Below, piece after piece: positions 1 to 11,743 of a DNA stretch of 15,431 nt; within the stretch, counting starts at the first letter, position 1; each line of letters starts with the position of its first letter. The DNA lies in assembly GCA_028280355.1 (NCBI GenBank), contig JANQMB010000108.1, forward strand, positions 1 through 15,431, in the 5' to 3' direction. Origin of the DNA: Verrucomicrobiales bacterium (GTDB taxonomy: Bacteria > Verrucomicrobiota > Verrucomicrobiia > Verrucomicrobiales > DEV007). Both the position numbers and the translations under genes were made by a program. The notes under the pieces are model-generated. The model was not told the origin of the DNA. It saw only the letters and a list, made by a program, of their open reading frames with translations, and made no database searches.

Positions 1-926
1 TCGCGCACCGCCGCGACGAAATCGGCGACGATCGCCTCGTGCCCCTCGGTGTCTGAGACCGCCGCGCTATCAGCGCCGCTGTGTACCTCGAACCCCCCGC
101 TCCGCGACGGGTTCTCCACCCCCTCGACATCCCAGAGGGTGATCTCGTCGTTCTCCATCACCAGCGTCCCCCGCTCCGCGTGGATCTCCAGCACCGGGGG
201 GAAGCCCCCCGGACCGCAGACCGTCGAGGCGGTGAGGCTGCCGATCATCCCGCCGGGGTAGCGCATCGCCGCCACCCCGTGATCCTCGACCTCGATGTCC
301 CAGCGGACCGTCCCCAACATGCTCACCACCTCGTCCGGCATCCCGAAGAACCAGGTGAAGATGTCGACATTGTGTGCCGCCTGCTGGATGAAGGGGCCGC
401 CGCCGTCGATCTCGTACCCACCGCGGTAGTCACCGGAGCCGTAGTAGGCCATGTCGCGGTAGAACTTCACCCGCATGTCCGCCGCATAGACCTGCCCCAG
501 ATCCCCGCCCTCGAGCAGCCGCTTGACCGCGATGTTGTCCGGGCTCATCCGGCGCTGGAAGGCAACGGCCAGGGTCACCCCGGCGTCCGTACAGGCCCGC
601 TCCATCGCGTCCATGTTCGCCCGGGTCACGTCGAGCACCTTCTCGGTCAGGACATGTTTGCCACGGGCCGCCGCCTCGACCGCACCCCGGTGGTGGAGGC
701 CGTTGGGGGTGCAGAGGATCACCGAGTCGAACCCGGCACCCTCCGCCGCCGCACCGATCGACGGGAACACGGGGAGGCCGGCGGCGTTGTCCGGGCCCCG
801 GCCCGACCGCGACACGACCCCGACCACCGCGGCACCCGCCACCTTCCCCACCGCCTCGATGTACGTGCGGCCGATGTTGCCCGAACCGACGACGACGAAA
901 CGGAAATCTTGATCGCGATCGCTCAT
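1..926 (-). CDS. Gfo/Idh/MocA family NAD(P)-dependent oxidoreductase (partial; C-terminal end lies beyond the window start)
   Basis: Reverse-complement translation from ATG (complement of 924-926) reads MSDRDQDFRFVVVGSGNIGRTYIEAV...ILCTPNGLHHRGAVEAAARGKHVLTEKV... This has the N-terminal Rossmann GxGxxG motif and the conserved H...EK motif of Gfo/Idh/MocA enzymes. No stop occurs before the window edge. The plus-strand ORF 81..1382 in the track is its antisense shadow fused to the next gene. Confidence 0.8.
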   Translation of the reverse strand, partial: MSDRDQDFRFVVVGSGNIGRTYIEAVGKVAGAAVVGVVSRSGRGPDNAAGLPVFPSIGAAAEGAGFDSVILCTPNGLHHRGAVEAAARGKHVLTEKVLDVTRANMDAMERACTDAGVTLAVAFQRRMSPDNIAVKRLLEGGDLGQVYAADMRVKFYRDMAYYGSGDYRGGYEIDGGGPFIQQAAHNVDIFTWFFGMPDEVVSMLGTVRWDIEVEDHGVAAMRYPGGMIGSLTASTVCGPGGFPPVLEIHAERGTLVMENDEITLWDVEGVENPSRSGGFEVHSGADSAAVSDTEGHEAIVADFVAAVR

Positions 927-998
927 CGCCCGAACCCTAGGCGCCACATGCAAAAAAGTCCTGCGCTTCTCCGCAGCGATGCCAGAATACCGCCAGCC

Positions 999-1382
999 AT
1001 GCCCATCAAGTTCCTACACACCCGCATCCGCGTCAGCGACATCGACGCCTCGATCGCCTTCTATGAGAAGCTCGGCTTCAAGCTCGCCAGGCGCAACGAC
1101 AAGTCCCCCGCCGGCAACCGCCTGGCCTTCCTCGAACTCGACGCCAGCGAACACTTCCTCGAACTCTGCTACTCCCCAGACTTCAAAGTCGAGTTCCCCG
1201 AGGACCTGATGCACACCTGCGTCGGCGTCGAGGACATCGTCGAATACTGCGGGGGGCTCGAGGGCGAGGGCATCGAGATCTGGCCCGGCGGCTGGCGGGA
1301 CAAGTTCGCCGGCGACGACATGAAGATGGCCTTCGTCACCGACCCCGATGGTTACGAGGTCGAGATCCTCGAACGACAATGA
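999..1382 (+). CDS. VOC family protein, glyoxalase I (lactoylglutathione lyase)-like, 127 aa
   Basis: Starts at ATG 999, in frame with the 81..1382 track ORF. MPIKFLHTRIRVSDIDASIAFYEKLGFKL...LAFLELD...MAFVTDPDGYEVEILE closely parallels the GloA pattern (HT.LRV.D...S..FY...LG..L, ..AFV.DPDGY.IELIE). GC3 is high in this frame. Confidence 0.85.
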   Translation: MPIKFLHTRIRVSDIDASIAFYEKLGFKLARRNDKSPAGNRLAFLELDASEHFLELCYSPDFKVEFPEDLMHTCVGVEDIVEYCGGLEGEGIEIWPGGWRDKFAGDDMKMAFVTDPDGYEVEILERQ

Positions 1383-1810: not shown

Positions 1811-1958
1811 CAGTATTCTTTCGGGTCGAATTTTTGGGTTTGTCCCCTAATTCCCTTATCTTCTGGGGTCTGCCTGCCCCCTATGATTGCTGCATGAATT
1901 TGTTCTAAGGTCCCCTGCTCCCCCCGCGTCCCCTATCCCACAGACCACCAACAAAGAC
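1811..1958 (+). promoter_or_regulatory. AT-rich (for this genome) non-coding region upstream of the secreted-protein gene; probable promoter/5'UTR
   Basis: Local drop in GC, for example tattctttcgggtcgaatttttgggtttgtcccctaattcccttatcttc. No frame here has coding-like GC3. It lies directly upstream of ATG 1959. Confidence 0.3.
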
Positions 1959-2414
1959 ATGAAGAGACCAATCGCAATCCTCGCCGTCCTCTCCGCTCTC
2001 GCCATCTCCAACAAGGCGGACGCCGCCGCCGCTGGCGGGGCGATTATCTATGCCGATGGCAAAGAGGTCGCCGGCTACGTCGACAGCTTCCCCGACGGTC
2101 CGATAGACCCTTCGTGGGCCGCCCCGCTGCTCGGGCGCCTAGAGGGGGTCGCTTTGAAACTCGCGGATAGCCACGTTGTCGTGGTGGATCCGAAAGACGA
2201 CACGAAGGCGACCCTGAAGGGCAAGATCAAGGTGTCCGCGAGCTTCAGGGGCAGGGAGATCGCCACAGCCAAGACCGACAAGCTCGGCCTCGTCAAACGC
2301 GATGGGGAGTGGTACGTCTCGGGCAAGGAAATCGACCGCATCATGGTGGCGGCCGGCGCGAAGGCCCCTGAAAAGGTTGTCGAGCAGGCCCCAGAGAAGA
2401 AAGCGGGCAAGTGA
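1959..2414 (+). CDS. secreted/periplasmic hypothetical protein, 151 aa, Lys-rich C-terminal half, Sec signal peptide
   Basis: Internal ATG at 1959 of track ORF 1887..2414 gives MKRPIAILAVLSALAISNKADA|AAAGG. This is a positively charged n-region, a hydrophobic core and an AxA cleavage site. The upstream TTG extension crosses the AT-rich region and is unlikely to be coding. Codon usage is somewhat AT3-richer than in neighbouring genes. Confidence 0.7.
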   Translation: MKRPIAILAVLSALAISNKADAAAAGGAIIYADGKEVAGYVDSFPDGPIDPSWAAPLLGRLEGVALKLADSHVVVVDPKDDTKATLKGKIKVSASFRGREIATAKTDKLGLVKRDGEWYVSGKEIDRIMVAAGAKAPEKVVEQAPEKKAGK

Positions 2415-2471: not shown

Positions 2472-5400
2472 CTAGTCCCCCTGCTGCACATCGGACTCGA
2501 TATCCACAGGAAGCTTCGGCGCCGCCGATTTCTTCTTCGCCGTCTTCTTCTGGGGGCGTGACGGCGCCTCCTCCACGGGCTGCACCTTGATCTCCACATC
2601 CACCGGCACGGCGCGCAGGCCAGCGATGATCCCCTGTAGCTGCTCGACGGTCTGCTCGGCCAAGGTCTGCGGCTGGCTGTAGCTCTGGCCGGCGGTGACG
2701 ATGGTCTCCCTGATGTCGTCGAGCCCCTTGCTGAAGGCGCCCATGGCACCGACGACGCGGGAGACCGGGTCGTCCTCACCGCCGCCGCCGAGCAGCTGGT
2801 TGCGGCTAAAAGTCTTGACGATCTCCTCCCAGCGCGTCGCCTCTTCGCCCTCGAGCAGCCCCTCCATCTCCTTGAATTTGAGCAAGTTGGCCTCCGCGCC
2901 GGAGGTCAGGGTCTGCGACTCGTTCTCGTAGTGGTCGATGATCGCCGCCTCGACCTCCCCGTCGGTCATCAGCGGCAGGATCTTCTCCGCCATGCGGTTC
3001 ATGTTGCGGTAGCTGCCCTGCAGCTTGAAGGCGGGTTCGGTGCGGTAGGCGTCCTCGGTGGCGGCGCTGCGGATGTACTCCTGGTTGACGCGCAGCACCG
3101 AGTCGCGCACGCGCATCAGCTTCCTCGTCACCGAGACCAGCTCCTCGATCTCGTCGGCCGTGTAGTTGCCCTCGAAGTCGACGCCCTCGGCGCCCCCGGT
3201 CTCGGCGATGTGCATCACCGCGTAGACGTCCTTCTGCGAGCGGCTGGCCAGCTTGCCCATCACCGGGTTGGAGGTGAGGGCGTTCTCGATGTAGCTGTTC
3301 TCGAAGGCGCGCGCGTGGGCGCCGATGATGTCGCCCAGGTTGTAGGTGTCGGCCCGGTTGGCGAGCATGTCCGGGATCTGGAACTTGCCGCCGCTCTCGG
3401 TGTAGGGGTTGCCGGCCATCACCACGGCGACCTTCTTGCCGCGCAGGTCGTAGGTCTTGGCGCGGCCGTTGTAGACGCCCTCGATCTTGCGCTGCGCGTC
3501 GCACAGGGAGATGAACTTCTGCAGGAACTCGGAATGGCAGTGCTGGATGTCGTCCAGGTAGATCATCACGTTGTCCCCCATCTCCAGGGCGAGGTTCAAC
3601 TTGAGGATCTCCTCGCGCGCGCCGGCGTTGGGCGCGTCCTCCGGGTCGAGCGAGGTCACGTCGTGCCCCAGCGCCGGCCCGTTGATCTTCATGAAGGTCA
3701 CGCCGAGCCGGTTGGCGATGTACTCCATCAGCGTGGTCTTGCCGTACCCGGGCGGCGACACCAGCAACAGCATCCCCATGCGGTCGGTGCGGGTCTCATC
3801 GCCCGCGGTGCCCATCTGCTTGGCCAGGTTGTCGCCCACCAGCGGCAGGTAGACCTCGTCGAGCAGCCTGTTGCGCACGAAGCTGCTCATGACCCGCGGC
3901 TTGAACTCGTCGAGCCGCATCCGCTCGCGCCGCCCGGTCACCAGCGCGGTCTTGAGGGTCACGAATGACTCGTATCGGGGCACGGCCTCGCGGCAGAAGT
4001 GGCGCAGCCGGGCGGTGAACTCCAGGTAGTCGAAACGGTAGCCCTCCGGGGAGACCCGCGGGTGCGCCCCGGACAGCCCATCGATGTCGCGCGCCAGCTC
4101 CACCTCGACCACGTGCTGTGCCTTGAAGCCGCGCAGCAGCTGCACGGCGGCCTCGGGGAGGTAGGTCTGGTCGGCGGCCGCGCCACCCTCCGCGCAGAGC
4201 AGGCCGGCCAGCCAGTCGGTGAGCGCCTGGTAGCGGGCGACGGTGTCCCCGTCGAGCTCGGCGAGCGCCTGCTCGAGCTTCTTGCTCAGGCGGCGGGCGG
4301 TGAGCGTCTTCTTGAAATGCCCCACCAGCTCCCCCGCCGCGGCCGAGATCGAGGTCTGCTCCGGGTCGAGCAGCTCGTGGAACAGGTAGAGCGCCGCCTC
4401 GTCCACGTCGCAGCCCGCGAGGCGCGGCAGCGAGACGGCATAGCGGTCGAGGAAAGAGGCGAGCAGCTCGCGCAGCTCGGCGATGTAGGTCTCGCGCGCC
4501 TCCAGCCCGGGGAAGCTGAGCGCGGCCATGCCGAACGAGCGCAACTTGGCGGCCAGCTTCTCCTTCTCCGCGGCATCGCCCCAGGCCTGCCAGAACAGGA
4601 GCCCCAGCGCGCGCTCGGCCGGCGGGTGCTTGAGCAGACCCGCGCCCCGGTGGATCGGCAACAGCGCCTCGAGGATCTTCGCCGCATCGCGGTCGTGGAC
4701 GCCCTTGGTGTACCCCTCGGCATAGCGCGGCGCCATGAACTCGCGCCCGGCCTCGGCGAGCTCCCCCCCCCCGGGGGTATCGGCCGCCGAGCCGCCCGGC
4801 GCGCCCTCGACCTCCTCCAGAAACTTCCAGGCCAGGTACTCGGCGCGGTAGACCTCCCCGTTCTCGCTGACGACGGTCTGCTCCCAGACCGGGCGCGTGT
4901 CGAGGAAGCCCTCGTCGTCGATGTGCTCGAAAAACTCGGTGCCGTTGAGGTGGAAGAACATTTCGCCGTCGCGGGGGACGGCGGTCAACTCGAGGTCCTG
5001 GGTGTTGACGTTGAAGCGGTGCTTGCCGAGCTGGATGATGTCCTTGCCGTCGACGAACAGCTCCTGCCGGTCCTTGAGCTGGCGCACGGCGTCCTCGCGC
5101 ACGGTCTTCAGGCGGGTCGAGACGTCGTCCGCCTTCACCGAGTCGCCGAGCTTGGTCAGCCGCGCGATGATGTCGCGCACCTTCTCGATCATCAGGTCGC
5201 CGGCGAAGTAACCGTTGATCTCGTTGACCGTGCCGAAACCCTCCAGGCGGCGCCTGATGCCACCGAGGATCCGCTCCGCCGACTTCAGGAGCGCGCCCGC
5301 GCGCCGCCCGCGCTCCTCGAGCAAGGCCTGCTTGCGCGTCTCGAAGGCCTCGTAGATCCCCTCGCGCTTCTCGGCCAGCTCGGTGATGTACTCGTCGAAC

Positions 5401-7622
5401 TCGCCGAACTTCCCCTCCAGCTCCTCGAGGGTGACCATGGTCTTGGTCAGGAACTCCTCGCACTTCTCCGGCGTCTCGCAGAGGTCGAGGTAGTTGATGA
5501 CCGCCTGGTCGAGCAGCTTCACCTGCGCGCCGAACTGCGCCTCACCCTCGACGCGCGCCAGCTCCCTGCGGCGGTTCTTGAGCGCCACTTTGACGGCGTT
5601 GAGCTCGGCGTAGATGGTCGAGATGTCGTCGATGATCGCCGTGGTCTGCGTGGCGTCCTCGATCTTGAGGTTGCCGACGATCTCGATCAGCATCTCCAGC
5701 TCGCCGCCCGCCGCGGCGATCGCCTCGCCGACCCCGTCGGCCTCGGTCACCTTGTCCAGCTTGCCGATCTTCGCCTGCTGTGTGGCGACGGCTTTGCGGT
5801 AGGGGTCGAGCGCCTCGGGCTTCAACAGGAAATTCACACAGGCGGCGGAGACCTTGTCGGTCGAAGCCACCACGTCGGCCTCCAGGGTGTCGACGGTTCC
5901 GGGGTCGACGTAGCGCAGCTCGCGCAGGCCGATCACCTCGCCGCGCACGGAGCGCAGCTCGGCGAGGCGGTGGACGAAACCGAGGATGTCGTCCGGCCGG
6001 GTGTGCTCGGCGGCCGAGAGGATCTTGCGCACCGCGTCGCCGACCCGCCCGGTCTCGTCGCGGGCGGCCTTGCGCAGGCGCTGGACTTTGTCGAACTCGT
6101 CGATCGCCGCCGCCGCCGCGCCGCGGATGACCTCTAGCGGTTCCCGCAGCCCGCCAGCCTCGCTCTGGCCGATCCAGAAGTAGCTGTCGCAGATGTCACC
6201 GGTCTTTTTCGCCAGGTCGACGTAGAGGTCGCCGTAGCTGTCGTCCTTGCCGAGCAGGGTGAGCACCTCGTGGCACTCGGCCATGCAGCGCACGACGTCG
6301 GCGTTGCCGATCTTGTAGAGATAGGAGCCCGCCGCCTCGCAGGGGGGGGCGTGGTCGCCGGCGGTGTACGGCGTCTGCCAGACCTGTAGCGCGTGGTGCT
6401 TGCCGGGCTCCTCCTCGGCGCGGAAGTAGATCATCTCGCCGGACCCGAACAGGCTGTAGCCGCTGCACAGGATCGGCGTGTCGACCTGCTGGCTGATGAG
6501 GTTGTAGGGCATCAGCACGTATTCGCCGCCGCGCCGGTTATAGAAGACGAAGAGGAAGTCCTCGCCGTTGGAGGAGGCGATGCGACGCTCGAAGACCATC
6601 TGGTCGAGCCCGTTGGCGAAGATCTTCGTCTCGCCGGTCTGCAGGTGGTATCCGTCGGCGAAGATGATGCCGTGGTCGTCGGGCAACAGCACGCAGGAGT
6701 GGCGGATGGAGTCGATGCGCTCGACGCGGCCGGTCTTCTCGTTGAACACCAGGATGCGGAACTGCTCCTCCTGGTAGGGCTTGATCTGCAACAGGATCAG
6801 GCTGCCGACGATCGCGTAGAAGACCTCGGCGTCGTCCAGGGTCTGGTCGGCGTTGTCGACCGGCTCCGAGTAGACGCCCTGGCCGGTCTCGGTGTTGTCC
6901 TCGACCTTGACGGTGAGGTCGCCACCGATGGTCTCGACGAAGAGGCGGTCGTCGACCGAGATATGCGGGTGGGCCCCGGGCCGGTGCATCTCGCGGTGGG
7001 CGCGCACCCAGTCGAACTCCTGCTGTGGGGGGAAGACGTACTCGTGGTCGGAGCGGTTGCCGACGTACTCTAGTTTGCCCTCGCCGATCCGGAACTTGAA
7101 GGTCTTCAGATCGTCGACGTCGCGCCCGATGCGGAAGGCCATGAAGAGGTGCGGGCCGCGCACCATGAACTTCACGAACAGGGTCTCCTTGTAGTACTTG
7201 TAGAGATACTTGAAGTCGTCGGCGAAACCGTCGCCCTCGATCAGATCCGAGAGCCCGAGGGCGTGGAAGATGTGCGTCTCGCTATCGTGGCGGTAGACGG
7301 CGAAGACGTCTGAGAGCTCGGTGGTGGACTTGAGCCCGAGCTGGACGTTGTAGCCGAACAGGAACACGCCGCCACCGATCGCCACCATGTCGCGCGGGGT
7401 GCAGTTGTTCTTGGTGGTGACCCGCTCGGTCGCCACCAGCTCCGGCTCGATGGCGCCAAACACCGCCTGGCGCTCGCCGTTGAGTTTGCCGAGGCGCCCG
7501 CGCAGGTCGGCCGCGCCCCTCTCGAGGCGCGCCCGGATCACCTCGTAGGCGCCGCCCTCGAGCTGGGCGGAGGCGGCAGGGGCTGCTAGGGCCGCGGCTG
7601 TTTCGGGGTCAGGCATCGTCAC
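2472..7622 (-). CDS. giant multidomain protein (1716 aa): beta-rich aromatic N-terminal domain (~aa 50-480), long alpha-helical/coiled-coil middle, AAA+ ATPase module of MoxR/AAA_5 type (~aa 1280-1440), Lys-rich C-terminal tail
   Basis: The ORF is uninterrupted with normal amino-acid composition. All overlapping ORFs in other frames are Arg/Gly/Ala/Pro-rich shadows. Walker A LLLVSPPGYGKTTLMEY is encoded around 3732-3755 on the minus strand. Walker B NVMIYLDDIQ is encoded around 3543-3567. A sensor-like region KKVAVVMAGNP lies downstream. GTG 7622 sits 8 nt from a GGGAGGG Shine-Dalgarno. The alternative ATG 7616 overlaps the stop of the upstream small ORF as ATGcctGA. Confidence 0.9.
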   Translation of the reverse strand: MTMPDPETAAALAAPAASAQLEGGAYEVIRARLERGAADLRGRLGKLNGERQAVFGAIEPELVATERVTTKNNCTPRDMVAIGGGVFLFGYNVQLGLKSTTELSDVFAVYRHDSETHIFHALGLSDLIEGDGFADDFKYLYKYYKETLFVKFMVRGPHLFMAFRIGRDVDDLKTFKFRIGEGKLEYVGNRSDHEYVFPPQQEFDWVRAHREMHRPGAHPHISVDDRLFVETIGGDLTVKVEDNTETGQGVYSEPVDNADQTLDDAEVFYAIVGSLILLQIKPYQEEQFRILVFNEKTGRVERIDSIRHSCVLLPDDHGIIFADGYHLQTGETKIFANGLDQMVFERRIASSNGEDFLFVFYNRRGGEYVLMPYNLISQQVDTPILCSGYSLFGSGEMIYFRAEEEPGKHHALQVWQTPYTAGDHAPPCEAAGSYLYKIGNADVVRCMAECHEVLTLLGKDDSYGDLYVDLAKKTGDICDSYFWIGQSEAGGLREPLEVIRGAAAAAIDEFDKVQRLRKAARDETGRVGDAVRKILSAAEHTRPDDILGFVHRLAELRSVRGEVIGLRELRYVDPGTVDTLEADVVASTDKVSAACVNFLLKPEALDPYRKAVATQQAKIGKLDKVTEADGVGEAIAAAGGELEMLIEIVGNLKIEDATQTTAIIDDISTIYAELNAVKVALKNRRRELARVEGEAQFGAQVKLLDQAVINYLDLCETPEKCEEFLTKTMVTLEELEGKFGEFDEYITELAEKREGIYEAFETRKQALLEERGRRAGALLKSAERILGGIRRRLEGFGTVNEINGYFAGDLMIEKVRDIIARLTKLGDSVKADDVSTRLKTVREDAVRQLKDRQELFVDGKDIIQLGKHRFNVNTQDLELTAVPRDGEMFFHLNGTEFFEHIDDEGFLDTRPVWEQTVVSENGEVYRAEYLAWKFLEEVEGAPGGSAADTPGGGELAEAGREFMAPRYAEGYTKGVHDRDAAKILEALLPIHRGAGLLKHPPAERALGLLFWQAWGDAAEKEKLAAKLRSFGMAALSFPGLEARETYIAELRELLASFLDRYAVSLPRLAGCDVDEAALYLFHELLDPEQTSISAAAGELVGHFKKTLTARRLSKKLEQALAELDGDTVARYQALTDWLAGLLCAEGGAAADQTYLPEAAVQLLRGFKAQHVVEVELARDIDGLSGAHPRVSPEGYRFDYLEFTARLRHFCREAVPRYESFVTLKTALVTGRRERMRLDEFKPRVMSSFVRNRLLDEVYLPLVGDNLAKQMGTAGDETRTDRMGMLLLVSPPGYGKTTLMEYIANRLGVTFMKINGPALGHDVTSLDPEDAPNAGAREEILKLNLALEMGDNVMIYLDDIQHCHSEFLQKFISLCDAQRKIEGVYNGRAKTYDLRGKKVAVVMAGNPYTESGGKFQIPDMLANRADTYNLGDIIGAHARAFENSYIENALTSNPVMGKLASRSQKDVYAVMHIAETGGAEGVDFEGNYTADEIEELVSVTRKLMRVRDSVLRVNQEYIRSAATEDAYRTEPAFKLQGSYRNMNRMAEKILPLMTDGEVEAAIIDHYENESQTLTSGAEANLLKFKEMEGLLEGEEATRWEEIVKTFSRNQLLGGGGEDDPVSRVVGAMGAFSKGLDDIRETIVTAGQSYSQPQTLAEQTVEQLQGIIAGLRAVPVDVEIKVQPVEEAPSRPQKKTAKKKSAAPKLPVDIESDVQQGD

Positions 7623-7812
7623 CTTGTCGCCCTCCCGTGAAACGGTAGCCGGCGGCGTCCTCCGCGACCCGTCCGGTCGGCCTCGCCATCCCTAACTCGA
7701 AGGCGAGTTCGCAAAGCTCCGCCATCAAGTCGATGCGGGTGGCGATCGCCTCTGGCGTCATCGCCGTCGAGATCGCCCGCCCCAGCGGATCCGGCTTTTC
7801 AGTCTCGTCCAT
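7609..7812 (-). CDS. small hypothetical protein (~67 aa, MDETEKPDPLGRAISTAMTPEAIATRIDLMAELCELAFELGMARP...)
   Basis: High GC3 (~80%) in frame. The ATG at complement 7810-7812 is preceded by GGAGAAG about 10 nt upstream. It overlaps the 3' end of the nucleotidyltransferase gene by 14 nt. Its stop overlaps the start of the giant gene. The longer 85-aa version from 7866 would overlap the NTase gene by 68 nt and has no Shine-Dalgarno. Confidence 0.45.
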   Translation of the reverse strand: MDETEKPDPLGRAISTAMTPEAIATRIDLMAELCELAFELGMARPTGRVAEDAAGYRFTGGRQGDDA

Positions 7813-8272
7813 CCCGAATCTTCTCCAACGCTTCGACATCAGCCAGGTCCTGTGCCCTGCCCGCATTCCGCTTCATGGCGATGAGGTCGTCCATGCCGAG
7901 CACCCAAACCTTCCTGCCGCCAATCTCGAACTCGACCCTCTGCCCCCATGCCTCACGCATCGCCGGACCGACCTCGAGGAGGTCGAGCATGACGAGCTCT
8001 TCGCGATCGACGCGCGAGATCCGGTGTACGACTTGCTCCTCATCCGAGTTTCTCCTGAAGGTCATTGTGTCCGCCCGGAGTATAAAGCCAGCCGCCCGGG
8101 CAAGTTCTTTCACGCGCGCGACATCGTCGCTCGCGACGAGGAGATCCACGTCCTCCGTGGCGCGAGGGTAGCCGTGGATGGCCACCGCCCACCCCCCGCA
8201 GATCGCATAGTCAACCCCAGCGTCAGACAGGGCATCGACGATCTCGTAGAACGCCTTCCTAACGCGGTTCAT
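7799..8272 (-). CDS. minimal nucleotidyltransferase (Pol-beta superfamily, MNT-like), 157 aa
   Basis: ICGGWAVAIHGYPRATEDVDLLV is a G[GS]-x(9-13)-[DE]-x-[DE] Pol-beta NTase motif, here with Glu/Asp (E-D-V-D) as the putative metal ligands. The C-terminal LGMDDLIAMKRNAGRAQDLADVEAL matches the conserved tail of small MNT-type nucleotidyltransferases. ATG 8270-8272 lies 2 nt after the flotillin stop. Confidence 0.8.
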   Translation of the reverse strand: MNRVRKAFYEIVDALSDAGVDYAICGGWAVAIHGYPRATEDVDLLVASDDVARVKELARAAGFILRADTMTFRRNSDEEQVVHRISRVDREELVMLDLLEVGPAMREAWGQRVEFEIGGRKVWVLGMDDLIAMKRNAGRAQDLADVEALEKIRDGRD

Positions 8273-8274
8273 CG

Positions 8275-10359
8275 CTATGCCCCCAACCCCTTCAGCAACT
8301 CCCCGGCCTTCTCCTCGGCCAGGCCGAAGCGCTCGGCGGCGCCGAGCAGACCCCTGAGCTTGGCGGTGGTCGCCTCGCTGTCGCTGGCGGCGATCATCTG
8401 CCCGAGCAGGGCGCTGACGCTGAGGTTCTTCAGGTCCTCGCTGCTCACTCCGAACTGCTCGATCCAGCTCGCGACCTGCGCCTTGAAGTACTCCGGGTCG
8501 CCGTTGAAGAAGGTGTCCCGCACGTCGCTCAGGGCGCGGCTGTTGTCGATCGTGCGGTCGACCGCCTTGCCGTTGGTGATCGCCTTGGTGATCTTGTCGA
8601 AGAACTCCGACTCGCCACCGACGATGTCGATCTTGGCGCTCTTCAGGGCCTCGCCGACGACCTTCGCCTGCTCGGCGGCGATCTGGCGCTGCACGTCGAT
8701 CTCGGCCAGCTCGACCTGCTTGTCCTTCTCGAGCTCCAGCTTGAACTCCTCGTGGCCCTGGCCGGCCTCCTCGAAGAGCTTCATGGCGGCGGCCTTCTTC
8801 TCGATGCCCTCGGCGTCGGCCTCGAACTTCTGCCTGGCGACGCTGGCCTCGGCCGTCCCCTGCCTCTCGGTGGCGTCGGCCTTGGCCTTGAGGACCTCGG
8901 CCTCGCCCAGGCCTTCGGCGGCGGCCTCTGCGGCGGTGGCGTCGGCGAGCATCTTCTTCGCCGCGGCCTCCTTCTCGGCCGCCTCCTGGGTCGCCTCCGC
9001 CTCGGTGACCACCTCCTGGGCGTGCAGTTCGGAGGCCTGGCGCCCCGCGTCGGCGGCCTTGACCCGCTCGTAGAGCTCCTGGTCGGCCCTCAGCTGGGCG
9101 GCCTCCTTGACCGCCTCCGCCTCCTTGATCTTCTTCACCAGCGCCTCCTGGGCATCCTTCTCGGCCAGCGTGACGGCGACCTGTTTCTCGCGGTCGGCGC
9201 CGGCGAAGGCCTCCGTGTCCAAGATGAGCTGCTGCTCCTCGACCACGGTCTTCTCGACGGCGACCCGCTCCTTGATGACCTCCTGGATGTTGCGCTTCTC
9301 GACCTCGACCTCCTTGTCACGCTCGATGCCCTTCAGGGCGGTGACGCGGTCACGCTCGATGGCCTCGAGCGAGCGATCGCGCTCGACGCGCTCCTTCTCC
9401 ACCGCGTCGGTGCGCTCTCGGTTGCGCGCGGCGACGATGACCTGCCGGTTTTTGTTCTCCTCGGCCACCTGCAGTTCCTCCTCGGTGGAGATGCGCGCCT
9501 GCTCCGACTTGAGCCGCTGCTCCTCCTCGACCTTCTTCGCCTCCGCCCCCTCGCGCGCCTGTACGGCGGCGACCTCGCGGGACTGCTTCGCCTCGGTCTC
9601 CGCGAGCTGCCGCTCCAGTTCCAGGATCGCCTCGCGCGCCTCGACGTCCTGCTGCTTGATCACCTTCTGTTTGTCCCGCTCGATGTCGTTGGTGAGCATC
9701 GCCTGCTCGGCGGTCTGCTTGGTGATCTTCTTGATGCCCTCGGAGTCGAGGATGTTGTCCGGGCTCATCGCCGCCAGGGGCGTCTGCTCGAGGTAGTCGA
9801 TCGAGGCGTCGTCGAGCACGAAACCGTTCAGGTTGGTGCCGATCACCTTGACGATCTCGTCGCGGAAGGTGTCGCGCTCCTCGTAGAGCTCGGTGAAATC
9901 GAAGCGCTTGCCCACCGTCTTCAGCGCCTCGGAGAACTTCGCGTCGAACAGGTGCTCGATCTCCTTGTGGCTCGAGGCGCGGGAGCAGCCGATCGACTGC
10001 GCCACCCGCTTGACGTCCTCGTTGACCGGGTTGACCCGGACGAAGAAGGCCACCTTGATGTCGGCGCGGATGTTGTCCCTGCAGATCAGGCCGTTGCTTC
10101 CGGAGCGGTCGATCTCGATGCGCTTGACCGAGATGTCCATGATCTCCTTGCGGTGGATCACCGGCAGGACCAGCATGCCCGAGAAGGTCACCTTGGTCTC
10201 GCCCATCCCCGTGCGCACCAGCGCGCGCCCCTGCTCCACCTTCACGAAGCACTTCAGGACGACGATGACCACCAGCACCAGGACGGCCACCGCTGCCGCG
10301 ATGACGATGCCGACGATGTTCTGTAGAAAGTTCGCTAGGGTTGGGTCGATGGCTGTCAT
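8275..10359 (-). CDS. flotillin-family protein (SPFH/band-7 domain plus extended E/K/A-rich coiled coil), YqiK/FloT-like, 694 aa
   Basis: N-terminal TM helix IVGIVIAAAVAVLVLVVIVVL. The SPFH core (~aa 40-230) includes EQGRALVRTGMG...TFSGMLVLPVIHRKEIMDISVKRIEID...IRADIKVAFFVRVNP. A very long heptad-like E/K/A/Q-rich region follows, then a conserved flotillin C-terminus. ATG complement 10357-10359 is preceded by a GAGGAGA Shine-Dalgarno. Its start overlaps the stop of the upstream gene as ATGA. Confidence 0.9.
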   Translation of the reverse strand: MTAIDPTLANFLQNIVGIVIAAAVAVLVLVVIVVLKCFVKVEQGRALVRTGMGETKVTFSGMLVLPVIHRKEIMDISVKRIEIDRSGSNGLICRDNIRADIKVAFFVRVNPVNEDVKRVAQSIGCSRASSHKEIEHLFDAKFSEALKTVGKRFDFTELYEERDTFRDEIVKVIGTNLNGFVLDDASIDYLEQTPLAAMSPDNILDSEGIKKITKQTAEQAMLTNDIERDKQKVIKQQDVEAREAILELERQLAETEAKQSREVAAVQAREGAEAKKVEEEQRLKSEQARISTEEELQVAEENKNRQVIVAARNRERTDAVEKERVERDRSLEAIERDRVTALKGIERDKEVEVEKRNIQEVIKERVAVEKTVVEEQQLILDTEAFAGADREKQVAVTLAEKDAQEALVKKIKEAEAVKEAAQLRADQELYERVKAADAGRQASELHAQEVVTEAEATQEAAEKEAAAKKMLADATAAEAAAEGLGEAEVLKAKADATERQGTAEASVARQKFEADAEGIEKKAAAMKLFEEAGQGHEEFKLELEKDKQVELAEIDVQRQIAAEQAKVVGEALKSAKIDIVGGESEFFDKITKAITNGKAVDRTIDNSRALSDVRDTFFNGDPEYFKAQVASWIEQFGVSSEDLKNLSVSALLGQMIAASDSEATTAKLRGLLGAAERFGLAEEKAGELLKGLGA

Positions 10360-11096
10360 TGTATCTCCTCTGTCTTTATGGGTTCCGTTTTACGGATGGT
10401 GTAAATCTGTGTGCCCTCCTCGTGGTCGATGACCATCACCTCGTCGCCGCGCGAAAGCGGCCCGGCGCCCCCGGCGACCCGCGCCTGCAACAACAGCGGC
10501 GAGCCGTCGATATCGACCTCCACCTGCCCGTAGCTCTCCGTCACCTCGCCCGTCTTGACGACGCCGACGCAACCCACCACCTTGACCTCCTCGCGGGCGC
10601 CGCGTCTAAGACCGCGCATCAGCGGTTTCATCGGGCTGGTGACGATCCGGGTGAGGGTGGCGCTGGTGATGAAATTCCCGACCAGCAGCCCCGCGGCCAG
10701 GACGAAACCGCCGCCGGGGTTGAGGTAGTAGTTGGCGATCATCGATGTCCCCCACATGAGCAGCGACATCATGCTGATCACCAGCGTCAGCGGCACCTCG
10801 CCCGCGTTGACAAACTTGAGGACGGCCACCCCGAGGTCGCCGAGCCCGCCACCGCTGTGCGCGCCGTGGAGGTCGTGGCCGGACGAGTGGTCGCCATCAG
10901 CGTGGGCGTCGACGTGGGCATCGACGTGGGCGTCCACATCGATGGCCACGTCCATGTCCCCGTCCAGGTCGACGTCGAGGCCCTCGTGGTGTGCGAGGCC
11001 GACCGCCACCATCAGCCAGTAGAGGCCGACGAGGCAGAGCAGCACGGTGAGCGGCAGGTTGTGCCAGACCAGGGCTTCTTGGACAATCTCTCCCAT
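10356..11096 (-). CDS. NfeD-like / YqiJ-like (DUF1449-type) membrane protein with C-terminal OB-fold beta domain, 246 aa
   Basis: N-terminal TM helix LTVLLCLVGLYWLMVAVGLA. An acidic His/Asp-rich loop follows. Two more hydrophobic helices are LGVAVLKFVNAGEVPLTLVISMMSLLMWG and GGFVLAAGLLVGNFITSATL. The C-terminal beta-rich segment VKVVGCVGVVKTGEVTESYGQVEVDIDGSPLLLQARV...GDEVMVIDHEEGTQIYTI is typical of the NfeD OB-fold. It sits upstream of the flotillin gene, the canonical NfeD-flotillin (yqiJ-yqiK) arrangement. Confidence 0.8.
   Translation of the reverse strand: MGEIVQEALVWHNLPLTVLLCLVGLYWLMVAVGLAHHEGLDVDLDGDMDVAIDVDAHVDAHVDAHADGDHSSGHDLHGAHSGGGLGDLGVAVLKFVNAGEVPLTLVISMMSLLMWGTSMIANYYLNPGGGFVLAAGLLVGNFITSATLTRIVTSPMKPLMRGLRRGAREEVKVVGCVGVVKTGEVTESYGQVEVDIDGSPLLLQARVAGGAGPLSRGDEVMVIDHEEGTQIYTIRKTEPIKTEEIQ
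10899..10934 (-). repeat. tandem 12-nt coding repeat (3 units) encoding (D-A-H-V/A)3 inside the His/Asp-rich loop (~10842-10991) of the NfeD-like protein
   Basis: Plus-strand units agcgtgggcgtc / gacgtgggcatc / gacgtgggcgtc run in tandem. The minus-strand frame translates them as DAHVDAHVDAHA. The antisense plus frame shows WASTWASTWAST in track ORF 10732..11022. Confidence 0.7.
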
Positions 11097-11228
11097 TGCA
11101 GTTTCAGATCACGTCCCCAGAGGTTGGGGGCGATGCGGTGTGGCGGTCAAGCCCGCCACCACCACCCCCTCTGCCCCGGAGACTTTCTCTACGCCGTGAA
11201 AATTAGGTGGCCAGCCGCCCCATGCCTA

Positions 11229-11253
11229 TTATAAAGGGGTTGTGCGTTTATAA
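11229..11253. promoter_or_regulatory. pair of palindromic TTATAA hexamers (centres ~19 bp apart) in the divergent intergenic region between the NfeD-flotillin operon and the HTH regulator gene; candidate operator / -10 elements
   Basis: ttataaa ggggttgtgcg tttataa. These are the only AT-rich islands in an otherwise GC-rich 185-bp intergenic region (11097-11281). They lie 30-50 bp upstream of the regulator start codon. Confidence 0.3.
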
Positions 11254-11281
11254 CCGCGCTCCGCCCCAACCCGCATACCGG

Positions 11282-11743
11282 ATGGAATCCCACGAAGTCA
11301 TCAAGAACGCCTGCGAGAAATGTAGCCCGAAGGAGGTCGCCGCAGAGCTCGGCGTGTCCCTCTCGCTCGTCTACAAGTGGGCGCAGCCCAACACCGAGCT
11401 CGGCAGCGGCAGCCGGAACCCCCTCGACCGGGTGCTCGAGCTGGTCCGCATCACCCGCGACCCGAGGATCATCGAGTGGGTCTGCGAGCAGGCCGGCGGC
11501 TACTTCGTCCGCAACCCGAAAAGCTCCTGTGAGGAGGGATACGAGGTCATGCCGGCGACCACCCAGATCGTCGAGCAGTTCGGTGCGCTGTTGGCCGAGA
11601 TCAGCAAGGCCGCGCAGGACAACTCCATCACCGACGAGGAGTCGTCGCAAATCCGCAAGGTCTGGGATGCGCTGAAGTCATACACCGAGGGCTTCGTCAA
11701 CTGCTGCGAGGAGGGCGACTTCACCAAGATCCGCAACCCGTAG
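11282..11743 (+). CDS. helix-turn-helix DNA-binding protein, phage lambda CII-like HTH (…[21 protein letters not shown]…), 153 aa, putative transcriptional regulator
   Basis: Internal ATG of track ORF 11207..11743. The upstream extension from GTG 11207 is AT3-rich and spans the TTATAA boxes, so I reject it. The HTH segment resembles the CII motif (AE.[LV]GV..S.[IV]S.WK.). GC3 is high throughout from 11282. It is transcribed divergently from the flotillin operon and ends 11 nt before the SDR gene. Confidence 0.7.

Follow-up and report, generated by a model that had tools for sequence, protein, structure and literature searches.

A giant DUF3686-DUF7902-AAA+ ATPase in a conserved operon with a YqiK-type flotillin and a YqiJ/NfeD-like membrane protein

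We analyzed a stretch of 15,431 nucleotides (nt) from a Verrucomicrobiales bacterium (contig JANQMB010000108.1; hereafter the window), which carries a giant ATPase gene on its minus strand. Five minus-strand genes are packed together with their ends overlapping or almost touching. They encode, in order, a YqiJ/NfeD-like protein, a flotillin, a nucleotidyltransferase, an open reading frame (ORF) of 67 amino acids (aa) and the giant ATPase. The giant protein is a full-length and collinear member of a family defined by DUF3686, DUF7902 and an AAA+ module. This family shows a near-obligate operon link with a YqiK-type flotillin and a YqiJ/NfeD protein as well as a recurrent link with PspA. The five genes and a sixth that diverges from them are as follows.

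10356..11096, minus strand: YqiJ/NfeD-like protein, 246 aa, with three transmembrane (TM) segments, an acidic D-rich linker and a C-terminal beta domain
8275..10359, minus strand: YqiK-type flotillin/SPFH protein, 694 aa, with a TM segment, a Band_7 domain, a long coiled coil rich in E, A and K, and a conserved C-terminal module
7799..8272, minus strand: nucleotidyltransferase, 157 aa (NTP_transf_5 / DUF6036 / AbiEii-like)
7609..7812, minus strand: ORF of 67 aa whose ends overlap the nucleotidyltransferase stop and the giant gene start; no family match
2472..7622, minus strand: giant ATPase gene, 1,716 codons from GTG 7622, with Pfam DUF3686, DUF7902 and AAA/AAA_5
11282..11743, plus strand: helix-turn-helix (HTH) gene of the phage CII (CP76)/YmfL type, divergent from the operon (Pfam Phage_CP76, E 2e-11; NCBIfam YmfL, E 4e-8)

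The conservation of this neighborhood was examined in 60 related loci with enough upstream sequence. In 57 of them, the gene immediately upstream of the giant gene, in the same orientation, encodes a flotillin, and a YqiJ gene is detectable upstream in 50. Clustering of all neighborhood ORFs, upstream and downstream, brought out no other broadly conserved gene. The order YqiJ-like protein, flotillin, giant ATPase was also found in Proteus mirabilis, on a Streptomyces linear plasmid, in Deinococcus grandis, on the Pseudomonas fluorescens plasmid pQBR103 and in P0256, the most divergent representative tested (27% N-terminal identity). The first-pass annotation, which had been made from the letters of the window alone, had described the giant protein as co-operonic with a flotillin, and these counts bear it out. 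The link with PspA takes several forms. CesT_Tir_1 and PspA genes precede yqiJ in 7-9 Bacteroidota loci, where an XRE-S24 regulator is divergent. On pQBR103 the operon cluster is fused to a yjfIJKLMC-like set consisting of YjfI, PspA, rhomboid, DUF2491, DUF350, DUF1190 and a glutathionylspermidine-synthase-like gene, and at locus L088 a PspA gene lies 6 kb downstream. Two genes divergently upstream of the operon in Proteus mirabilis (L085, 3681-5461, minus strand) appear by eye to be LemA-like and TPM-domain-like; TPM domains have been reported as PspA partners (Ravi et al., PMC11237479).

The two partners required different searches to be recognized. With the full-length window flotillin as query, Pfam returned nothing significant and NCBIfam nothing at all, and its relatives carry a '-' in public precomputed annotations. 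Band_7 was detected when residues 1-250 were scanned alone (E 1.1e-10), and the protein aligns with E. coli YqiK at 30% identity over residues 23-474 (E 8e-43). In all probability, it is the E/A/K-rich coiled coil that sets off the composition filter of HMMER. Since the flotillin escapes Pfam and NCBIfam at full length, automated annotation easily misses its link with the ATPase. Against solved structures, the single flotillin sequence gave no match and a 32-sequence profile gave only a weak coiled-coil match to QmcA. The window YqiJ-like protein alone had no Pfam match. Its family profile matched E. coli YqiJ with an hhalign probability of 96.7%, and among 28 family members 13 match Pfam YqiJ_N and 2 match NfeD. 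Residues ~35-95 of this protein (window ~10800-11000, minus strand) form an Asp-rich low-complexity linker, DVDLDGDMDVAIDVDAHVDAHVDAHADGDH, between TM helices 1 and 2. Such a linker is found in nearly every family member at very variable length, and it may bind cations.

The operon has already been described computationally. Ravi et al. (mSystems 2024, PMC11237479) reported it with CesT/Tir-PspA and three further genes, including the YqiJ/YuaF three-TM protein, and noted a wider distribution for abbreviated operons that retain only flotillin and YqiJ, in some cases with the ATPase. For Dokdonia donghaensis, their Table S3 lists a divergent "cHTH+Protease" followed by CesT_Tir, YqiJ-YuaF, Band-7...Flotillin and "Betapropeller+Coiled-coil+AAA-ATPase". 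The Bacteroidota loci in our set show each gene of this arrangement in turn, the divergent HTH+protease regulator among them. The window has the same three core genes in the same order, but it lacks CesT/Tir-PspA and phospholipase D, has the CII-like regulator where XRE-S24 stands, and carries a nucleotidyltransferase cassette inserted before the ATPase gene. Because CesT/Tir-PspA is absent, the window represents an abbreviated form of the published operon. No experimental study of the giant ATPase family was found in the searchable literature, and a full-text search returned no paper mentioning DUF3686 or PF12458, or flotillin together with "DNA repair ATPase". The two upstream genes of the window have homologues in E. 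coli (yqiJ-yqiK) and in B. subtilis (yuaF-floT). In E. coli K-12, yqiK is followed not by a giant ATPase gene but directly by the type I toxin-antitoxin loci sibD/ibsD and sibE/ibsE. A blastn search of E. coli genomes with the yqiJ-flotillin DNA of Proteus gave no match.

We considered whether the giant gene is real and where it starts. The window is rich in G+C (66%, with values of 64-71%), and long ORFs are also present on other frames, such as one of 712 aa at 3999..6137 on the plus strand. ORF length proves nothing in a G+C-rich region that carries several such ORFs. The minus-strand frame alone has homologues. Because more than 3,073 database proteins match it and DUF3686 scores 602 bits, the frame at 2472..7622 is a real gene. 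The public gene call, P0001, is 100% identical in sequence and starts at ATG 7616, 6 bases after the GTG, for a product of 1,714 aa. Its contig has a length of 15,431 bases, and the window thus covers all of it. This ATG overlaps the stop of the small upstream ORF, and it is the likely true start, giving 1,714 aa.

Membership in the family is supported by the domain matches and by their order. Pfam DUF3686 (PF12458) matched residues 39-482 with 602.1 bits against a cut-off of 25, covering profile positions 1-448 of 448, and DUF7902 (PF25472) matched residues 603-687 with 93.1 bits against a cut-off of 26. These two domains and the C-terminal AAA module stand in the family order, and the total length falls within the range of ~1,600-1,800 aa. 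All family motifs are present in the window protein, and no structural difference from the family was seen. A scan of the giant protein against NCBIfam matched no family model and returned Walker A-level noise only. In a PDB sequence search with the whole protein, the Walker A region alone matched (Rix7, p97, RuvB), and the other ~1,500 residues were uninformative. The nearest relatives are Verrucomicrobiales proteins at 58-70% identity. Many of them are named "DNA repair ATPase" by NCBI, in agreement with the label mentioned in the first-pass annotation. As no NCBIfam model matched, this product name must stem from another rule; the Pfam text for DUF3686 reads "ATPase involved in DNA repair".

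The extent of the family was surveyed by an exhaustive phmmer search with residues 1-1200 as the query against 1.84 billion cluster representatives. There were 449 representatives at E <= 1e-30 and 991 at E <= 1e-10; the family comprises at least 449 clusters at 50% identity. Seventy-two representatives have at least 1,500 aa (the longest 2,036 aa). Since most of these full-length members match nearly the whole 1,200-residue query, they constitute one family of fixed architecture rather than products of domain shuffling. In a pattern scan that took one genome for each species, the family was found in at least 579 species, in phyla that include Verrucomicrobiota, Planctomycetota, Bacteroidota, Desulfobacterota and Kiritimatiellota. 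Plasmid records searched by tblastn added Pseudomonas, Proteus, Vibrio, Halomonas, Photobacterium, Streptomyces, Nonomuraea and Deinococcus. No new biology comes from the window on its own, which contributes a further orthologue of a known, described and uncharacterized family.

The architecture of the giant protein was modeled in two AlphaFold2 (AF2) runs on 48-sequence alignments, one for residues 1-900 and the other for residues 861-1716, with mean pLDDT values of 86.8 and 87.1, respectively. From the N terminus to the C terminus, the following elements were distinguished, all on the minus strand.

Residues 25-55: helix (AF2)
Residues 61-416 (6375..7442): divergent beta-propeller-like domain, the core of DUF3686, with ~26 strands (AF2)
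Residues 434-855 (5058..6323): bundles of long helices resembling spectrin repeats, including DUF7902 (603-687)
Residues 862-900 (4923..5039): small conserved beta domain (AF2 and conserved motif LGxHRFxVN)
Residues 905-1170 (4113..4910): all-helical variable domain (AF2)
Residues 1177-1180 and 1194-1198: two beta-strands (AF2)
Residues 1199-1270: two long helices (AF2)
Residues 1285-1428 (3339..3770): AAA+ alpha/beta core (Pfam, alignment, AF2)
Residues 1289-1297 (nt 3732-3758): Walker A, SPPGYGKTT
Residues 1353-1360 (nt 3543-3566): Walker B region, MIYLDDIQ
Residues 1429-1545 (2988..3338): AAA+ helical lid with the conserved RTEPxFKLQGSYRNMN; R1539 is the candidate sensor 2
Nt 3003-3029: lid motif QGSYRNM
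Up to ~residue 1670: further helices (AF2)
Residues 1672-1716 (2475..2609): Lys-rich C-terminal tail, disordered and unconserved (pLDDT <50 from residue 812 of the second model; no conserved columns)

The first-pass annotation had proposed that the N-terminal ~430 residues are beta-rich and perhaps a propeller, and the model and structure comparison agree. Foldseek searches retrieved many beta-propeller proteins at E 2e-6 to 1e-3. These include axonemal WD40 proteins, an Elongator (Elp123) chain and a Ski2-3-8 complex chain, and also CyRPA, the clathrin terminal domain with its linker, and prolyl oligopeptidase. The probabilities were near 1 yet the TM-scores were low, indicating that the domain of residues 61-416 is propeller-like but divergent. 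DUF3686 is a Pfam family of unknown function and not an enzyme family, in keeping with the early expectation that the N-terminal and middle regions would not prove to be a single known enzymatic family. The middle of the protein had been described as helical with coiled-coil character. It is indeed helical in the models, but instead of one long coiled coil it consists of folded spectrin-like bundles, with the longest helices reaching 58 residues, followed by the small beta domain and the variable helical domain. Four strands of the small beta domain are common to both models, and a fifth (898-900) appears in the second model only. Within the protein, conservation is lowest in the variable helical domain of residues 905-1170: even close relatives share a mean identity of 0.26-0.37 across residues 1001-1200. 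The Lys-rich tail is present as described, with PQKKTAKKK beginning at residue 1690. Because it is unconserved and predicted to be disordered, it is weak evidence for the membrane or nucleic-acid binding once suggested for it.

No TM segment was found in the giant protein. A second, degenerate AAA+ or McrB-like module had been raised as a possibility and was rejected: there is a single AAA+ module at ~1285-1545, and the rest of the protein is propeller, small beta domain or helical in the AF2 models. We also considered a hidden PspA/ESCRT-III hairpin in the helical region, an idea prompted by one JGI homologue, P0034, that is labeled "phage shock protein A". It was rejected, as a profile-profile comparison with PspA gave a probability of 0.3%.

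The AAA+ module has both the alpha/beta core and the helical lid of the fold. The Pfam P-loop matches at residues 1285-1408 are weak, and AAA_5 is the only one that spans the whole domain (positions 2-125 of 139; 26.5 bits against a cut-off of 22). The closest AAA+ structures are CbbQ/NorQ (MoxR), dynein and midasin. The MoxR/AAA_5-like assignment, which had been proposed at the outset, is thus supported, with a modest margin. A beta-hairpin (residues 1379-1392) precedes sensor 1 in the model, a feature shared with the MoxR ATPases of the AAA_5 group (CbbQ, NorQ, RavA). The segment between strand 2 and helix 2 (1315-1332) was modeled as a loop, and the helix-2 beta-hairpin insert of MoxR ATPases is not visible in the AF2 secondary structure. 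The window protein further differs from them by ~1,280 extra N-terminal residues. In dynein and midasin (Rea1), as in the window protein, an AAA_5-type module comes after a long helical region that ends in a binding domain. These proteins have six AAA+ modules per chain, whereas the window protein has one and would therefore need to oligomerize.

All of the motif peptides first quoted for the module, Walker A, Walker B and the sensor-like VVMAGNP beginning at residue 1400, are present. A lack of conservation in orthologues had been named beforehand as one result that would refute the assignment, and the following counts clearly speak against it. SPPGYGKT is letter-identical in 71 of the 72 full-length representatives, and DDIQ lies exactly 64 residues downstream of it in 66. 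Invariance was judged on 48 diverse aligned sequences with N-terminal identity down to 26%, and residue roles were assigned by position in the AF2 secondary structure. The residues invariant in all 48 are K1295 (Walker A), D1357 and D1358 (Walker B), Q1360, H1361, N1405 (sensor 1), R1423 (arginine-finger position) and QGSYR(1539)xM (lid, sensor 2 position). DDIQH looks like a conservative variant of the MoxR/dynein motif DE(I/F)NR, and QGSYRN presumably corresponds to GASPRA in the same way. With all catalytic residues kept, the AAA+ module is predicted from these alignments to be catalytically intact.

The remaining genes of the window appear to be a regulator, passengers and flanking genes. 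Homologues of the CII-like gene are found upstream of yqiJ in 6 related Verrucomicrobiota/Opitutales/Kiritimatiellota loci and are divergent in 5 of the 6. The CII-like HTH protein is probably the regulator of the operon, as a candidate, and no operator repeats were found in the intergenic region between it and yqiJ (11097-11281). The nucleotidyltransferase is an inserted passenger and not a conserved component of the operon. It is not found at the gap between flotillin and ATPase genes in related loci, where other small selfish genes are found instead, and the 67-aa ORF is probably its partner. Small genes of the selfish or toxin-antitoxin type have landed in this gap repeatedly. Inserts between the flotillin and the giant gene are present in L001, L005, L009, L014, L018, L045, L054, L068, L081 and L087 (4722-5241). 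Those found elsewhere include PDDEXK_3, an IS200-like Y1 transposase, ParE and a PIN-like pair, and two more, a 23S-rRNA-IVP protein and a DUF559-like gene, were named by eye only. The genes that flank the operon in the window are metabolic. In the 433-aa ORF at 81-1382 (plus strand), a glyoxalase/VOC match covers only the last ~120 residues (311-430), and the N-terminal part is probably an over-extended ORF call in high-GC sequence. The 175-aa ORF at 1887-2414 (plus strand), convergent with the giant gene, had no significant match in Pfam, NCBIfam or PADLOC and is not conserved beside the giant gene in related loci.

We propose that the giant protein is an ATP-driven remodeler of flotillin/YqiJ assemblies, and perhaps of PspA assemblies, under the membrane, acting in an envelope-stress or membrane-maintenance response; we would give this reading a probability of roughly 55%. 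The AAA+ modules would probably form a ring like those of CbbQ, NorQ and RavA, with the propellers held away from it on the long helical arms. Contact with the flotillin/YqiJ assembly on the cytoplasmic side may then be made by the propellers or the arms, and the C-terminal module of the partner flotillin is a possible site for it. ATP hydrolysis would remodel, open or disassemble the flotillin assembly, or it may act on proteins held by that assembly. Such a step could be part of an envelope-stress or membrane-maintenance response that is linked in some lineages to PspA and a CesT/Tir-type chaperone.

A lead on where the two proteins may meet comes from the flotillin itself. Its C-terminal module, residues 561-694 (8275-8679, minus strand), has the motif KIDIVGGE..FFD..AIT.GK.VDR...TFFNGD...SSED.KNLS and is present in 63 of 64 ATPase-partner flotillins. 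It is also found in the partner flotillins of Streptomyces, Proteus, Deinococcus and P0256. E. coli YqiK lacks a giant partner; it is alignable only to residue 474 of the window flotillin, and the module was not detected in it by local comparison. The module is thus a candidate docking site for the giant ATPase. In a large database search with the C-terminal 220 aa of the flotillin, nearly all of the 120 matches listed are short pieces of 128-385 aa without gene context. These are labeled flotillin or YqiK where they are named at all, and they are useless for judging specificity for ATPase partners.

Several observations count against the remodeling proposal or some part of it. The proposed mechanism rests on gene neighborhood and analogy, and in 3 of the 60 loci an adjacent flotillin is absent. 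The C-terminal module was not detected in the pQBR103 flotillin in spite of its giant partner, and the negative control for the module is one protein, E. coli YqiK; on these two grounds the docking site is to be read as a lead and not as a result. Walker B is Asp-Asp throughout the family and not Asp-Glu as in MoxR ATPases, and hydrolysis could for this reason be slow or of a switching kind. The loop between strand 2 and helix 2, GPALGHDVTSLDP, at the position of pore loop 1, is highly conserved but has no aromatic-hydrophobic pair, which disfavors classical threading of a substrate. Characterized MoxR ATPases use a VWA/MIDAS partner, such as CbbO, NorD or ViaA. The window operon encodes no such partner, and no VWA domain was found in the giant protein, in the window genes or among the conserved neighbors of ~80 loci. 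Taken together, the lack of an aromatic pore loop, the DD Walker B and the resemblance to MoxR and dynein favor a non-threading remodeler or switch over a Clp-like unfoldase.

Alternative functions were weighed against the same evidence. The first is a Vps4-like role, in which the true substrate would be a PspA (ESCRT-III-type) polymer, to be disassembled or recycled by the ATPase, and flotillin and YqiJ would serve only as the membrane platform. CesT/Tir-PspA genes in the operon of Bacteroidota loci and on pQBR103, together with the PspA gene near the operon in L088, speak for such a role, and ESCRT-like analogies for PspA-AAA+ associations were proposed by Ravi et al. (PMC11237479). However, in ~50 of the 60 loci, including the window, there is no PspA beside the operon. 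The AAA+ module is MoxR/dynein-like rather than Vps4-like, a Pfam scan of the giant protein found no MIT domain, and profile comparison between the giant family and PspA found nothing. We consider it unlikely that PspA is the sole true substrate.

We find it about equally improbable that the giant protein serves in quality control of membrane proteins, as a protease-free counterpart of FtsH in HflK/C that would unfold, extract or release clients confined by the flotillin assembly. There is precedent for SPFH cages that pair with AAA+ machines, as in HflK/C-FtsH and in prohibitin with the m-AAA protease. In HflK/C-FtsH an SPFH scaffold is genetically coupled to an inner-membrane AAA+ ATPase, much as in the window operon, and S. 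aureus FloA-NfeD is reported to stabilize unfolded proteins (PMC11222466). FtsH, however, is a membrane-anchored classical AAA protease, whereas the window protein belongs to a different AAA+ group and has neither a TM segment nor a protease domain, and no protease partner gene accompanies it. An unfolding or extracting role also fits poorly with the missing aromatic pore loop and with the strongest structural matches being to the non-threading MoxR and dynein types.

A role as an anti-phage or conflict NTPase, in which the propeller would sense an invader and the ATPase would trigger a membrane effector, appears still less plausible. The presence of the gene on megaplasmids, the toxin-antitoxin-like or selfish small genes that adjoin it and the historical link of PspA with phage stress would all be consistent with defense. 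Yet those small neighbors differ between genomes, as passengers would, and the genes flanking the operon in the window are metabolic. PADLOC gave no significant match for the operon proteins: the best for the giant protein was IetA (E 5e-4, 17.6 bits) over the Walker A region only, and the flotillin, YqiJ and the CII-like regulator had none. A toxic effector domain is lacking, and the operon keeps a stable form across phyla, with proteins collinear over their full length, unlike diversifying defense genes. As for DNA repair, the function in the database name, we regard it as hardly credible and the label, which is inherited from the Pfam DUF3686 description and the NCBI product name, as without support and probably wrong, since the giant protein has no DNA-binding, nuclease, helicase or SMC/Rad50-type domain, RuvB models match residues 1276-1320 only (23-26 bits against cut-offs of 282-299) with no other repair family matched, ~80 neighborhoods contain no repair genes, the conserved partners are membrane proteins, and DUF3686 and PF12458 are mentioned nowhere in the literature searched.

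Beyond the remodeler of flotillin/YqiJ assemblies proposed here, a more specific picture can be offered, which we put forward tentatively and regard as possible rather than probable. The family may be the missing ATP-driven engine of the flotillin, and also PspA, assemblies of bacterial membrane maintenance: a homo-oligomeric, single-module relative of MoxR, dynein and midasin whose spectrin-like arms, tipped by propellers, would dock on the flotillin dome at its partner-specific C-terminal cap, and the dome would be opened or disassembled. If this is true, the giant family would be the bacterial functional counterpart of Vps4 acting on ESCRT-III, or of FtsH in HflK/C. Tractable hosts of the operon are Proteus mirabilis, P. 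fluorescens SBW25 with pQBR103, Streptomyces and Dokdonia, the example of Ravi et al., and the models together with residue invariance point to K1295, D1357/D1358, R1423 and R1539 as targets for mutagenesis. For the problem of how bacteria build and dismantle their flotillin assemblies, this conserved and widespread AAA+ partner of 1,700 residues is the obvious candidate for the energy-dependent step.

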